DNA from: a virus
Taxonomy: Duplodnaviria; Heunggongvirae; Uroviricota; Caudoviricetes
DNA: 40,441 nt
Strand: one strand, 5' to 3'
Virus record (IMG/VR): IMGVR_UViG_2531839530_000005
Span: 1-40,441 of that record
A program made the translations under genes and the position numbers. The notes beneath the pieces were generated by a model that saw only the letters and a list, made by a program, of their open reading frames with translations, searched no databases and was not told the DNA's origin. This document shows positions 28,180 through 32,494 of this stretch, piece after piece. Each line of letters begins with the position of its first letter. The first letter of the stretch is position 1.

Positions 28180-28470
28180 TCACTGCGCCACCTCCTGAAA
28201 AATCACCTGATGCCCCAGTTTCTCCGCCAGCGCCAGTTCCGCCCTCGCCCCCGCTGACTGGTACCAGTTTCTCAGCATGTAAACCGCCTCCACGCTGCGA
28301 ATCATCGCCATGCAGATATCCATGTAGTGCGACTGTGTCAGCCCGTCCGGGAGCACTGCCGGGTTTAAGACGGTGTGCCCTTCCCGTTTCAGTTCCTCTT
28401 CCGCCTTGTGAAATGCTTCACGGTTAAAGTTTTCATAACCGGTCATCGGCCCTGCGACATAAACCTTCAT
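28180..28470 (-). CDS. DUF4406-like protein (nucleoside 2-deoxyribosyltransferase-like fold)
   Basis: N-term MKVYVAGPMTG... characteristic of this family. Confidence 0.5.
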   Translation of the reverse strand: MKVYVAGPMTGYENFNREAFHKAEEELKREGHTVLNPAVLPDGLTQSHYMDICMAMIRSVEAVYMLRNWYQSAGARAELALAEKLGHQVIFQEVAQ

Positions 28471-28892
28471 ATCGTTTTTACTGACCCTTTATTGCCCCTG
28501 TAAAACATCAAAACTCGCTGCATAACATCGCTATTCCGGCACTCGCTACAGATTATGTTCTGACGCCTGTCGTAGCGGCGTATTTCTCCGTCTGGTAATG
28601 ACCAGATAAGGTCCGGATCAACTACAGATGGTTTCTTCAGATTTGCCCTTGAGAGTTTTTTACGGGCGTTTTGCCAGTCCTTACGCGCCTGTTCAGACGG
28701 GAATAACCCGTAACCAGAGTTGTATACATCGCCACTGGCAACCAACTCTCTGGCGAGAACACTCATCAGATATCTTGTCGTACCTGTCTTGGCTTCCAGT
28801 TGCCGTAACGTCTCGCGACCGCTCAGACGTACAAGTTCAACAACCTGCCCTTTAATTTTTTCCCGCTCTTCTGGTGTAAATACTTTTGCCAT
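28467..28892 (-). CDS. Winged-helix DNA-binding protein
   Basis: HTH-like RETLRQLEAKTGTTRYLMSVLARELVASG. Confidence 0.4.
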   Translation of the reverse strand: MAKVFTPEEREKIKGQVVELVRLSGRETLRQLEAKTGTTRYLMSVLARELVASGDVYNSGYGLFPSEQARKDWQNARKKLSRANLKKPSVVDPDLIWSLPDGEIRRYDRRQNIICSECRNSDVMQRVLMFYRGNKGSVKTI

Positions 28893-28907
28893 AAGCGCCT
28901 CCGGCAA

Positions 28908-29669
28908 TCACTTTTCCGATGCAACACAGCGAGAAGAATCAGTAATCTGTCGAACAATATCCCGGTGCTTGTTCAGTTCCCGCAGCGCAGCACAGACTCG
29001 TTCCCACTTCTGGACATGACTTTTCGCCCGACGCAGTTCGCGGTTTGCCATATGCAGCGATGGTAAAACCAGGTCATCCGCTCGCGTTTCAGTAAACGAT
29101 GGCAGCGACTGCACAATGTCCGCCACAGTTTCTGTTTTAATATCTTCCTGTGTTGCAGCCTCACGTACTGGTAACGCAACACCTGCGGGCTGAGGAAAGG
29201 CCTTACCATCAGTTTCCGCTACCGATGCTGCTTTCGGCTCTGCTGGTAAATTATCGCCCGGTATGCAGTAACGAAATTTACCGCCCTGATTTACGCGAAT
29301 CAGACGACCTTTGCTGATTGCCATTGCCAGCGTTGAAGCCACTTTGCGTGATGTGGTACCAAACAATGTAGCCAGCTCATCAGCCGTTTGTGGTCCGCGT
29401 TGTTCAATCGTCGCGGTTAAATCGCACTCTGAGATTTTCGCTACTGTTGCTGTGGTGGTTTCTTCCGGCAGTTCTGCCTGCGCTGGCTGTTCCTGCTGAA
29501 CGTTGTTATCAGCCACACGCCAGGTGTACGCGCTTTTATCAACAAAACCAGCCTTTTTCAGTTCCCATAGTTCGTTCAGCACTTCTTCACGACTGATATC
29601 AAGTCGCGCAGCCAGTTCTACCGACGTGGCTTTTCCCATTGCTTTCAGTGCGTCAAAAACAGTCTCCAT
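28908..29669 (-). CDS. Protein with two winged-helix-like domains, downstream of replication genes
   Basis: Two MarR-like segments ([28 protein letters not shown] and [28 protein letters not shown]). Confidence 0.4.
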
Positions 29670-29691
29670 TAAAATTTCCTCCCGGTAAAAA

Positions 29692-30438
29692 TCACTTCGC
29701 AATTCCTGGCTGGACGACATTCGGACGCCAGCTCTCCCAGTTAAAATTCACCCATCGCCCGCCGTTCATGGTCATGCGATCCATAATCCTCTCGCCGAGC
29801 AATGTTTTCATGGCCTCATAGTTCAGGTTTGTCAGCATCCCCACGCTGCGCATCGACGCTGTCCGGCGATCAACAATCTGGTGCAGCACCACCTGCTCGT
29901 TTTTTGTCTCGCGCTGAATGCCAATTTCATCAAGAACCAGCAGATCCACTTCGCACAGCTCCCGCAAAAATTTTTCGCCTGACTGCCCGTCGTCATAGCT
30001 GGCGTGCAGGGCGCTCATAACATCAGCCACGGTAACCACAATCACTGTCTGACCGTCTTTCAGCAGGCGATTCCCGATAGCTGCCGCTAAGTGATTCTTC
30101 CCGGTACCAGGTTTTCCGCTGAACGCAAAATTTGTACACCCGGTCATCAGTTCATCGGTGATGGATTTCGCCTGGCTTAACGCGTATCGCTGGCCGTCGT
30201 TCTGCACCTGGTAATTCGCAAACGAGCATTTACGGTGCAACGGCTGGATGCCAGAGCGATTCAGAATTTTTTCCACCCGCAACTGACGATTCAGGCGGTT
30301 GATCTCCTCGCAACGTTTCTGGCCTTCAGCAAGTTGCCACTCACGCCACTCCGCAACCGTTCTGAATGGGGCGGTTACATGTGGTGGGGTCAGTCTGCGG
30401 ATACGCTCCAGAACGCCGCCTGTCGCAATATTTTTCAT
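29692..30438 (-). CDS. DnaC-like helicase loader (IstB-type AAA+ ATPase)
   Basis: Walker [16 protein letters not shown] and Walker B LLVLDEIG. Confidence 0.8.
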
Positions 30439-30444
30439 GGTCTG

Positions 30445-31239
30445 TTACCCCCTGAAGCCTGGCGGGATCGCACTGTCCGGCAACGAGACGGTGTTAACCT
30501 GTCGGAGCAACGTCTCAGGCCGAACACCTTTCGGTGCGAACAAGCCCTGGTATTCATTGGCGATGCTGTGTCGAATCACCTGCTCAGGTGTAAAACCCTG
30601 CTGACGGAATTTTTCCAGTTCCCGTATCGCCCCGTTAGCGCCCTGCTCCGTTCGAATCGGTTTTCGCAATGCCTGTCTGAACCGGACCCACTCATGCCAG
30701 AGTGTTTCCGGCAACCAATCAGGCAGCTCAATAGCCTCCGGCTCGAATTTTTTAGACGCTCGTTTTTGGCGAGGGGGATTTAGGGGGAGATCAGTATTTA
30801 GATCTTCCTCTTCCTCTTCCTCTTCCTCTGGTAACGCTTTTTGATCCGTTTGTGTAACGCTGGCAGCGTTACCTTTTCGTTTCAGTTCGCGTATTTTTGT
30901 AACTCGCTCGTTTGTAACCGCCCGTTTTTTAGAGCTTTTTCCGTTATGACGTTCAAAGTTAGGTAGAGAAAGCCCAACGTCATTTTCGACCAGCCATCCA
31001 ACCTGAATTAACGCATCAGCAAAACCAGCCATAAAAGTGATGCGATCTATTGCACTTTTTGTAACGCCGCGAGCGTTACAATCTGCATTACCGTCTATCA
31101 TTTGTTGATCCGCCCATGCCCAGAAGCGAATAACCTTCCCTAATGCGGCATCTGGATCAATATTCAGAATCTCAGCAAGCCTGAATATTTCCGGCTTATC
31201 CGGCGTAATAACCTCGAGCTTTATCCAGTTTGAAGCCAT
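30445..31239 (-). CDS. Replication initiation protein (lambda O / YdaU-like) with internal poly-Glu linker
   Basis: Position upstream of DnaC-like gene; palindromic sites within coding sequence; EEEEEEEED encoded by GAAGAG repeat. Confidence 0.5.
   Translation of the reverse strand: MASNWIKLEVITPDKPEIFRLAEILNIDPDAALGKVIRFWAWADQQMIDGNADCNARGVTKSAIDRITFMAGFADALIQVGWLVENDVGLSLPNFERHNGKSSKKRAVTNERVTKIRELKRKGNAASVTQTDQKALPEEEEEEEEDLNTDLPLNPPRQKRASKKFEPEAIELPDWLPETLWHEWVRFRQALRKPIRTEQGANGAIRELEKFRQQGFTPEQVIRHSIANEYQGLFAPKGVRPETLLRQVNTVSLPDSAIPPGFRG
30854..30872. repeat. 19-bp palindrome GTAACGC-TGGCA-GCGTTAC (copy 1)
   Basis: Perfect 7-bp arms; inside replication gene. Confidence 0.6.
31061..31079. 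repeat. 19-bp palindrome GTAACGC-CGCGA-GCGTTAC (copy 2)
   Basis: Perfect 7-bp arms; inside replication gene. Confidence 0.6.
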
Positions 31240-31252
31240 TTGTTTTCACCTT

Positions 31253-31271
31253 GTAACGCTCGCAGCGTTAC
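31253..31271. repeat. 19-bp palindrome GTAACGC-TCGCA-GCGTTAC (copy 3)
   Basis: Perfect 7-bp arms; just upstream of replication gene start. Confidence 0.6.
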
Positions 31272-31316
31272 ATTTAACTGATACCGAACAAAACAATCCG
31301 GCACGATTAATTTCAA

Positions 31317-31739
31317 TCAATGCACTACGACAGAATCGCCGGGCGACCCACCACCGCTGAAATGTGCTTTCCGGTAAACGGCCTGGACTGCATCATCATG
31401 CGCATCAATTGCCGTACTCAACGCTTCCTGCGCCGCCAGTAATGCACGGCGCTCCAGGGTATCGAAGATGCAGATTCGGTGACGCAGCTCGCGCGGAAGA
31501 ATTGCCAGAACCGCAGGGATCAGTTTCTGAATTTTTTCCCTTTGCGCTTTCGTTTCACCTTTCAACCAACGGTGATAGATATTCTGCTGATTGTTCCAGT
31601 CCTTGCCTGGTACAAGGGGCAATTCGCCGCCCCCCTGGCGCAGATATTCTTCAGTAATTGCGTTAGCGACCCACGCCTGCCCTTTTTCGGCTGCCAGGGC
31701 TAACAACACTGATTCGATGTGCTCATGCCTGATTTTCAT
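31317..31739 (-). CDS. YdaT-like protein (CII-type regulator analogue of Rac prophage)
   Basis: 140-aa ORF recalled as near-identical to Rac YdaT (MKIRHEHIESVLLALAAEKGQAWVANAITEEYLRQGGGELPL...). Confidence 0.55.
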   Translation of the reverse strand: MKIRHEHIESVLLALAAEKGQAWVANAITEEYLRQGGGELPLVPGKDWNNQQNIYHRWLKGETKAQREKIQKLIPAVLAILPRELRHRICIFDTLERRALLAAQEALSTAIDAHDDAVQAVYRKAHFSGGGSPGDSVVVH

Positions 31740-31978
31740 GAATCAACCGCTCCTATGCTGTTTTCGCTATGCTTACCGCCTGGGGGGAATACATCGTCAA
31801 GTCCACAATGAGCGCCAAGCCGATTAAGGGTAGAAACAATTTTTCTGCACTCCTCTAGTCCAGGGGTACGAAAATTTGCTTCGTAATTTGCCAGTCGGCT
31901 TTGTATCCACCCTAACTGAACAGCAAGTTGTCTTTGAGACAGCCCAAGCTGTTTTCGATATGTTGAAATTTTGTTCAT
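31736..31978 (-). CDS. YdaS-like Cro-type HTH regulator
   Basis: HTH LGLSQRQLAVQLGWIQSRLANYE; divergent from repressor; SD GGAGG. Confidence 0.6.
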   Translation of the reverse strand: MNKISTYRKQLGLSQRQLAVQLGWIQSRLANYEANFRTPGLEECRKIVSTLNRLGAHCGLDDVFPPGGKHSENSIGAVDS

Positions 31979-32074: not shown

Positions 32075-32494
32075 ATGGAAAAAGAAAACGAAAAAATTGC
32101 CGCTAGTAGGCTCAATGACAAAATTGCAATGCGTCTTAAAGAGCGCAGGCAGAAGCTTGGTTTATCTCAAGGAAAACTTGCTGAAATCTGCGGATGGACG
32201 CAATCGCGTATAGGTAACTATGAGGCGGGCAGCAGAAATGTTGGAGTGCATGACGCTGTCGTATTGGGAAAGGCTCTTGGCATATCTCCTCCTGAGCTCC
32301 TCTTTGGAGAACAGGAATCTTCTGAATTGTGGTTAAATGAATCCCAACGAAAACTTCTTGAGTTGTTTAACCAGCTACCGGGCTCAGAACAACAACGAAT
32401 GATTGAGCTATTTGAAGTCCGGCTAAAAGAAATCGATGAGTATGTAGAAAAATATTTGAGAGGCAGGCTTAAAGATAATCCCCCACCGGAGTAA
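32075..32494 (+). CDS. Prophage repressor (RacR/CI-like, XRE HTH)
   Basis: HTH LGLSQGKLAEICGWTQSRIGNYEAG; divergent from cro-like gene. Confidence 0.7.
   Translation: MEKENEKIAASRLNDKIAMRLKERRQKLGLSQGKLAEICGWTQSRIGNYEAGSRNVGVHDAVVLGKALGISPPELLFGEQESSELWLNESQRKLLELFNQLPGSEQQRMIELFEVRLKEIDEYVEKYLRGRLKDNPPPE

Follow-up and report, generated by a model that had tools for sequence, protein, structure and literature searches.

In iteron plasmids, one initiator reads several separated clusters of sites around or in its own gene; in P1, incC and incA flank repA, and pSC101, R6K and pPS10 have inverted-repeat operators. Looping or handcuffing takes place between clusters, and the inverted repeats close to the gene's start have a part in autoregulation. 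The origin of phage lambda lies in the middle of gene O, where inverted-repeat iterons bound by O dimers adjoin an AT-rich tract (PMC7466680, PMC6022878), and an active origin, oriJ, has been reported for the Rac prophage (PMC3945230). Here, we examined 40,441 nucleotides from a virus of the Caudoviricetes (IMG/VR record IMGVR_UViG_2531839530_000005, positions 1 to 40,441; this whole stretch is referred to below as the window), in which a 19-bp palindrome, GTAACGC-N5-GCGTTAC, is repeated in and just upstream of a replication initiator gene. Comparison with homologous loci indicates that the palindromes are probably the cognate binding sites of the initiator whose gene holds them, and that they probably form an origin embedded in that gene.

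A motif search of the whole window, allowing up to two mismatches, returned exactly three matches to GTAACGC-N5-GCGTTAC, all of them perfect, with a chance expectation of 0.05, and three matches were reached in none of 100 shuffles. This bore out the sequence-only reading of the stretch, which had placed two perfect palindromes within the initiator gene and one in the intergenic region upstream, at intervals of about 190-200 bp; the measured start-to-start distances are 207 and 192 bp. The sites are numbered here along the gene, with site 3 at -32 from the ATG, site 1 at +160 and site 2 at +367 (coordinates of all features are collected in Table 1). In the encoded initiator, a poly-Glu linker connects an N-terminal domain (N-domain, approximately amino acids 1-138) to a C-terminal domain of the YdaU type. 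Site 3 ends 14 nt before the ATG, directly 5' of an AAGGTG Shine-Dalgarno sequence, and site 2 forms the core of an origin-like cluster of half-sites where the N-domain ends. On both strands of the whole window, the 7-mer GTAACGC is present in 13 copies, compared with 3.5 expected, and 7 of the 13 exact copies are held by 30831-31271. The half-sites listed by the earlier reading fared unequally, since the one at 30831 is exact whereas those at 30899 and 30914 carry one and two mismatches, and a fourth, with one mismatch and 12 bp start-to-start upstream of site 1, had been overlooked. In enteric relatives the equivalent of this fourth half-site is a perfect GTAACGC, stemming from a 12-bp (4-codon) insertion that duplicated the left arm, and in several of them the nearer of the 30899/30914 half-sites is a perfect GCGTTAC (coding R-V-T). 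No DnaA boxes were found in 30400-31300.

A profile search with the N-domain yielded 71 genomic and 80 viral loci of ~5.4 kb, each of which was scanned for the motif, and a non-redundant set of 64 representatives, with proteins down to ~40% identical to the query, was defined at 85% amino acid identity. In the homologous loci the motif occurs almost only at ~+136 to +160 and at +323 to +412 of the gene, and half-site 6-mers, whose density in the flanks is 0.155 per kb, accumulate from -100 to +450. Site 1 is present in 49 of the representatives, site 2 in 47 and both sites in 43. The hosts of motif-bearing loci include Enterobacterales, Pseudomonas, Burkholderiales, Planctomycetota (Novipirellula, Stieleria), Verrucomicrobiota (Akkermansia) and a metagenome-assembled genome of the Ignavibacteriae, and the motif is also carried by the isolated phages TL-2011b, CP2 and PAN70. 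The earlier suggestion that the palindromes are functional, origin-associated elements of the replication gene is supported by this conservation in homologous replication modules, which extends even across phyla. Site 3 has an equivalent in 8 representatives, at -32 to -44 or, in one locus, at -76, and in 9 of the 14 enteric loci inspected, often with extra left half-sites; outside the Enterobacterales, the only matches were weak ones with two mismatches (-21, -57) in some Verrucomicrobiota loci. In one Pantoea sp. locus (L009), the segment from -56 to -12 is a nearly exact ~45-nt copy of +141 to +185, flanks included (atcgacgGTAACGCaaataGTAACGCtgcgaGCGTTACaaaaagcg), which suggests that site 3 can arise through duplication of site 1.

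Among the 64 representatives, the arms of the palindrome are near-invariant and the 5-nt spacer is freely variable. Wobble positions within the arms (positions 2, 5, 14 and 17) carry ~1.2 to >1.8 bits, compared with 0-0.8 bits at wobble positions of the spacer and flanks. All 49 carriers of site 1 read it in one frame, with conservation at the arm wobble positions. Three frames are in use at site 2, coding NAxxVT in 32 representatives, VTxxAL in 8 and SRxxRD in 7, and site 3 is non-coding. The near-invariant arms with their conserved wobble positions, the three frames of site 2 and the non-coding site 3 show that selection acts on the palindromes at the DNA level and not at the protein level.

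Where the arms do vary, a genome has one variant, symmetric between the two arms and shared by its two sites. Arms of the form GTCACGC...GCGTGAC were found in loci L049, L059, L066 and L068, GTTGCGC...GCGCAAC in L032, CTAACGC...GCGTTAG in L051 and GTTACGC...GCGTAAC in L030. The mean distance between the arms of site 1 and site 2 within a genome was 0.306, compared with 1.005 ± 0.071 when genomes were permuted, and none of 5000 permutations reached 0.306. Such concerted arm changes point to one trans-acting reader. The same layout, built on another half-site (GTCCGC), is found in Salmonella phage epsilon15 (L155, gene 42) and Pseudomonas phage phiPSA1 (L158), whose proteins are 33% identical to the query. 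In these phages GTCCGC-N7-GCGGAC lies at +65 and +344 (epsilon15) or at +65 and +365 (phiPSA1), and extra GTCCGC and GCGGAC half-sites plus a (GAGAA)n tract are present inside the replication gene. The epsilon15 record has no rep_origin feature annotated at these sites.

The identity of the reader was addressed by a co-occurrence test covering ±2.5 kb around the palindromes in 58 palindrome-bearing loci. The sole protein common to all 58 was the initiator N-domain, which makes it the obvious binder; the YdaU C-domain co-occurred in 7 loci, DnaC-like proteins in 6, RacR-like proteins in 5, YdaT in 4, YdaS in 2, DUF1627 in 1 and DUF977 in none. Within the N-domain, a basic helix (K104-x-R106-x-x-T109-x-x-R112-V113) contains two residues, 109 and 113, that co-vary with base 3 of the half-site, being T/V in 33 of 34 GTAAC loci, A/E/G/S and K/Q in 7 of 7 GTCAC loci, D/K in the GTCCGC loci and A/M in the GTTGC locus. 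In L031 and L048, which have GTCAC sites, the core of the protein is nearer the GTAAC class (55-57% versus 40-45%) and the tail is of the GTCAC type. The signal at T109/V113 was obtained by class-by-class inspection, uncorrected for phylogeny, and a strict column test of protein-DNA covariation returned only an N to H change, which is itself forced by the DNA. We regard the covariation of these two residues with base 3 as a lead.

The cluster around site 2 (30831-30920) codes amino acids 107-137 and is followed by the polypurine linker (30803-30829), placing it at the junction of the N- and C-domains. The plan shared by the family at this position comprises one to four left half-sites (GTAACGC) every ~12 bp, the palindrome, and then right half-sites (GCGTTAC), one to three in number. 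Relatives carry 3-7 half-sites at ~12-bp intervals, and the flanking half-sites are in direct orientation. The last right half-site, GCGTTACC (coding A-L-P), directly abuts the polypurine tract, and the combination of GCGTTACC with (GAR)n after it is what varies least in the cluster from phylum to phylum. In relatives the tract is mostly (GAGAA)n, read E-K-R-R-E, and the enteric form, (GAGGAA)n, is read as poly-Glu. Across 45 loci, the longest run of purines that follows site 2 measures 20 nt at the median (range 11-33); in background windows of 90 nt, the median is 7 and the 99th percentile is 13. The segment 30780-30960 shows strong strand asymmetry, with an AT skew of -0.45 to -0.60, and the tract at 30803-30829 is a candidate unwinding element. 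We also observed that (GAGAA)3-6, located ~30-60 nt after site 2 (e.g., in L015, L029, L054 and L059), cycles through all three frames, and that a (GAGAA)n tract is kept from Planctomycetota to epsilon15; since the pentamer tract is a mirror repeat, it could in principle form H-DNA.

The locus resembles the lambda origin in several respects. In both, the origin or origin-like element lies within the initiator gene, at the segment that links a DNA-binding N-domain to a loader-recruiting C-domain, the genes are ordered cro-like, cII-like, initiator, loader, and the repeated sites are dyad-symmetric and ~19 bp long; those described here change in concert with the N-domain lineage, as judged at the sequence level. 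Each is adjoined by a strand-asymmetric tract, which at this locus is a candidate for easy opening. In contrast, homology between the N-domain and lambda O was not detected (no match to Pfam Phage_rep_O), the half-sites are arranged in head-to-head arrays of 12-bp period rather than as four spaced iterons, the tract is (GAR)n polypurine of ~45% GC rather than AT-rich, and the loader is DnaC/IstB-like rather than lambda P. The window itself lacks a tandem array of at least four iterons and has a single full site at the junction, and two further sites lie ~200 and ~400 bp upstream. The sequence-only reading had set the dispersed palindromes apart from the tandem iterons of lambda, and this contrast stands only in part, because site 2 in relatives is the centre of a half-site array of ~12-bp period beside a polypurine tract, of which the window has a reduced version; what does differ is the extra conserved intragenic site ~200 bp upstream, together with the enteric site before the start codon.

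The region forms a Rac-type immunity and replication module of a prophage, with Rac-like E. coli phages and prophages as its nearest relatives, and shares with K-12 Rac the order racR, ydaS, ydaT, ydaU, ydaV. Similarity at the DNA level extends over ydaV and the C-terminal half of the initiator gene (window 30400-30806), both ~86% identical to K-12 Rac, the latter to ydaU. The N-domain of K-12 YdaU, in contrast, is DUF1376 (Pfam E=2.7e-26), a model that matches the K-12 protein only, and hhalign of the N-domain family profile against this DUF1376 domain found no relationship between the two N-domains. The GTAACGC half-site is likewise absent from K-12 Rac. K-12 ydaU carries instead at least 5 copies of (G)ATGTTCAA(ACA), in a direct/inverted cluster before the linker and as two dispersed copies upstream, and these repeats, which have the same layout as the GTAACGC system, are candidate initiator sites of oriJ. 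Like iteron plasmids, the locus would have one initiator reading several separated clusters around and in its own gene; unlike them, the conserved sites are palindromes within coding sequence, and no homology to the plasmid Rep proteins was detected.

The N-terminal half of the initiator gene (30809-31228) is 68-72% identical in DNA to genes that have a DnaT-like C-domain and a lambda-P-like partner. The breakpoints of homology fall in the polypurine tract, where the match to K-12 ydaU ends at 30806 and the match to DnaT-type genes starts at 30809, and the polypurine/poly-Glu tract is, judged from these alignments, a recombination joint of a mosaic initiator gene. The N-domain with its sites occurs fused to various C-domains (YdaU-type, DnaT-type and others), and the (GAR)n tract may provide the microhomology by which cassettes of N-domain plus origin are exchanged among loader-specific C-domains. 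For the N-domain there is no Pfam match even at E<=10 and no NCBIfam model, and the family comprises 6,792 cluster representatives (50% identity) at E<=1e-3 and 4,245 at E<=1e-10. In E. coli genomes, RefSeq/PGAP labels this initiator 'hypothetical protein', and homologues in phage records are labelled 'primosomal protein I', 'pyocin large subunit' or 'hypothetical protein'. An AlphaFold2 (AF2) model of amino acids 1-138, with a mean pLDDT of 68 and a core of ~80, shows four helices and a beta-hairpin followed by a basic helical tail, and the core that precedes the basic helix is a putative winged helix. In the model, site 1 (coding N-A-R-G-V-T) falls in a low-confidence loop between predicted helices (amino acids 47-60) and site 2 codes the disordered end of the domain, which places the DNA elements where the protein tolerates sequence constraint.

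Table 1. Coordinates of the palindromes, half-sites, polypurine tract and neighbouring genes in the window, and of the repeats in K-12 ydaU
Feature	Coordinates	Strand	Description
Site 3	31253-31271		Perfect palindrome GTAACGCTCGCAGCGTTAC, ydaT-rep intergenic spacer
Site 1	31061-31079		Perfect palindrome in N-domain coding region
Site 2	30854-30872		Perfect palindrome, codes N-A-A-S-V-T
Exact half-site	30831-30837		GCGTTAC on gene strand, codes A-L-P, abuts polypurine tract
Degenerate half-site	30899-30905		GTAACTC, 1 mismatch
Degenerate half-site	30914-30920		GTAACCG, 2 mismatches
Extra half-site	31085-31091		GCATTAC (gene strand GTAATGC), 1 mismatch
Polypurine tract	30803-30829	-	27 nt, all-purine on gene strand, (GAGGAA)n, poly-Glu linker
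Replication initiator gene	30445-31239	-	264 amino acids; PHROG 2509 'replication initiation protein', E=1e-90
ydaV-like DnaC/IstB-type AAA+ helicase-loader gene	29692-30438	-	Pfam IstB_IS21 E=1.6e-19, Bac_DnaA E=5e-8
cII-like YdaT	31317-31739	-	
cro/YdaS-like HTH protein	31736-31978	-	
cI/RacR-like repressor	32075-32494	+	
K-12 ydaU repeats	L002 2945-3016, 3164-3175, 3249-3260		In DUF1376 N-domain coding region and linker cluster

Genes of the DUF1627 and DUF977/Ren-like types lie downstream of the ydaV-like gene. The segment 30780-31280 also contains six GATC (Dam) sites, at 30789, 30801, 30843, 31044, 31107 and 31155, a density that is the maximum of the window (mean 1.7 per 500 bp; six were reached in 4 of 799 windows). 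Several enteric relatives also have one GATC between site 2 and the last half-site, and the cluster may reflect a link to Dam/SeqA, by analogy with oriC and the P1 origin.

In the explanation that we consider likely, namely that the palindromes are initiator binding sites forming an origin within the initiator gene, a dimer of the N-terminal domain would bind each 19-bp site through two half-sites of 7-8 bp whose centres are ~11 bp apart. The origin would consist of the site-2 cluster and the polypurine tract at the junction of the N- and C-domains, in the manner of ori-lambda in gene O. Once assembled on the cluster, the initiator would open the strand-asymmetric tract beside it and would recruit, through its C-terminal domain, the DnaC-like YdaV for loading of the host DnaB. 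Sites 1 and 3, located 207 bp and a further 192 bp upstream, would be bound by the same initiator as auxiliary sites, giving rise to a looped higher-order complex, throttling read-through transcription of the initiator gene (autoregulation), or both. The comparisons show selection on the nucleotides of the sites, their concerted evolution within genomes, an association with the N-domain that is exclusive, and a conserved arrangement of cluster and polypurine tract; from these we infer binding, origin firing, unwinding at the tract, looping and autoregulation. The parallel layout of the repeat in the unrelated N-domain of K-12 YdaU, and the precedent of lambda, also count in favour of the explanation.

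Several observations weigh against this explanation. No literature was found on binding or origin activity for any member of the initiator family or on the epsilon15 origin, none of the papers listed for the motif dealt with an origin or a phage, and 11 of the 64 representatives have no detectable sites. The cluster in the window has only one full palindrome, with one exact and two degenerate half-sites, and no lambda-like array, and the polypurine tract, at ~45% GC (0.42-0.50), is not classically AT-rich. The spacing of sites 1 and 2 (189-300 bp) singles out no particular helical phase; a Rayleigh helical-phase test on these distances gave similar R for periods of 10-12 bp and is thus uninformative. 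The protein-DNA covariation is confounded by phylogeny, and palindromic covariation is also expected of a hairpin, which each site can form in RNA at ~-11 kcal/mol.

A bolder version of the initiator-origin explanation, which we put forward tentatively and think somewhat doubtful as a whole, is that the DNA-binding domain and its own origin constitute a portable replicon cassette, represented by more than 6,000 protein clusters in at least four phyla. In such a cassette the DNA elements, read in whichever frame they fall, would imprint NAxxVT, ALP and EKRRE/poly-E on the protein, T109 and V113 of the basic helix would form a two-residue code for base 3, and two or three clusters ~200 bp apart would loop to fire the origin at the mirror-repeat tract and to autoregulate.

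The palindromes could instead be autoregulatory operators and nothing more, through which the initiator represses its own gene, with the true origin elsewhere in the prophage. Site 3 does lie immediately upstream of the Shine-Dalgarno sequence and ATG, the intragenic sites could serve as roadblocks, and the Rep inverted-repeat operators of plasmids (pSC101, R6K, pPS10) count in favour of such a role. We consider it unlikely, however, that this is the whole explanation. Conservation is a property of sites 1 and 2, site 3 being essentially enteric, and the half-site array with its polypurine tract at the domain junction has the layout of an origin. In addition, a promoter scan revealed no sigma-70-like promoter overlapping any palindrome, and none of the other repeat clusters of the window was linked to the replication genes. 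A purely operator role suits site 3 better than it does the conserved sites 1 and 2.

It is less probable again that the sites act as stem-loops, either in mRNA, with an effect on its stability or translation, or in single-stranded DNA, as a priming or primosome-assembly signal, and not as duplex sites. Stems do not require arms to be identical across phyla and among the sites of a genome, nor to change in concert, and the direct-repeat half-sites of 12-bp period cannot pair at all. At the innermost pair (positions 7 and 13), pairing is often lost through a change on just one side, and a scan of 30300-31800 gave no Rfam match at E<0.5. In favour of stem-loops are an RNA hairpin at each site with a stem of 8-10 bp (-10.9 to -11.9 kcal/mol, z -2.5 to -3.0), arm changes that are compensatory, and the DnaT-like C-domains of many relatives. 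Site 2 on the + strand, followed by CTTTTCGTTT (30854-30882), also scores as terminator-like, but this score is confined to the antisense strand of site 2, and the T-run is probably a by-product of Lys/Arg codons and is absent at sites 1 and 3. As a separate observation, site 2 with CTTTTCGTTT, though probably a codon by-product, could stop antisense transcription entering the N-domain region.

We give little credence to the possibility that the palindromes are signals for recombination or module exchange, that is, homology patches or recombinase targets used in swapping replication modules. The fusion of the N-domain and its sites to YdaU-type, DnaT-type and other C-domains would fit such a role, but the breakpoints are found in the polypurine tract (30806-30809) and not at the palindromes, site 1 lies in the middle of the N-domain, and symmetry, a fixed 5-nt spacer and concerted arms are unexpected of homology patches.

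The sequence-only reading had also raised the possibility of operators for the adjacent winged helix-turn-helix (wHTH) proteins at 28467-29669. More broadly, the candidates are the DUF1627 or DUF977/Ren-like wHTH proteins (28467-29720), YdaT, YdaS and the RacR-like repressor, all encoded close by and with HTH-type folds. These regulators rarely co-occur with the palindromes (each in at most 5 of 58 loci, with only 1 for DUF1627 and 0 for DUF977), and YdaT recognizes a different motif, TTGATT-N6-AATCAA (PMC9986795), whose best match in the window, at 31729-31746, is away from the palindromes. The low co-occurrence and the different YdaT motif lead us to reject this reading, which is extremely improbable for any of the neighbours. 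With respect to YdaT itself, the match at 31729-31746 (CTGATTTTCATGAATCAA) has one mismatch to the consensus and lies at the ydaS-ydaT junction, a position equivalent to that of the high-affinity OM operator in CP-933P (PMC9986795), and a weaker match with two mismatches (31303-31320) lies over the ydaT stop codon; the window contains 6 matches to the YdaT motif, which is not above the 4.1 expected by chance.

Finally, a coding by-product, in which a repeated N-A-x-x-V-T peptide happens to be encoded by a palindrome, would account for both intragenic sites of the window coding NAxxVT in the same frame and for the near-invariance of G-N-A-x-x-V-T in the alignment, but is refuted by the use of three frames with unrelated peptides at site 2, the conservation of wobble positions in the arms and not in the spacer, the synonymous GTT to GTG changes that accompany N to H changes, and the non-coding site 3.

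An origin inside the initiator gene, with dyad-symmetric sites beside an unwinding tract, is already known as the lambda paradigm, so the concept proposed here would extend current understanding and does not overturn it. What is new is an initiator family without a curated model, the sequence of its sites and their arrangement in head-to-head half-site arrays of 12-bp period, a conserved second intragenic site ~200 bp upstream with a third before the ATG in enterics, a polypurine tract in place of an AT-rich one, and the phylogenetic breadth of the system, for which the searchable literature yielded no description. If the explanation is correct, it would define the origin and recognition sites of a very common prophage and phage replication module, whose members include Rac-like prophages of E. 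coli and Shigella, epsilon15-like phages, Xanthomonas CP2-like phages, and phages of Pseudomonas and Ralstonia. Two 19-bp palindromes ~200 bp apart, followed by (GAGAA)n, would then be a signature for automatic annotation of origins. The family would also provide a natural experiment in the co-evolution of initiators and their sites, with testable specificity swaps, and a clear case of cis-elements constraining protein sequence in three reading frames.

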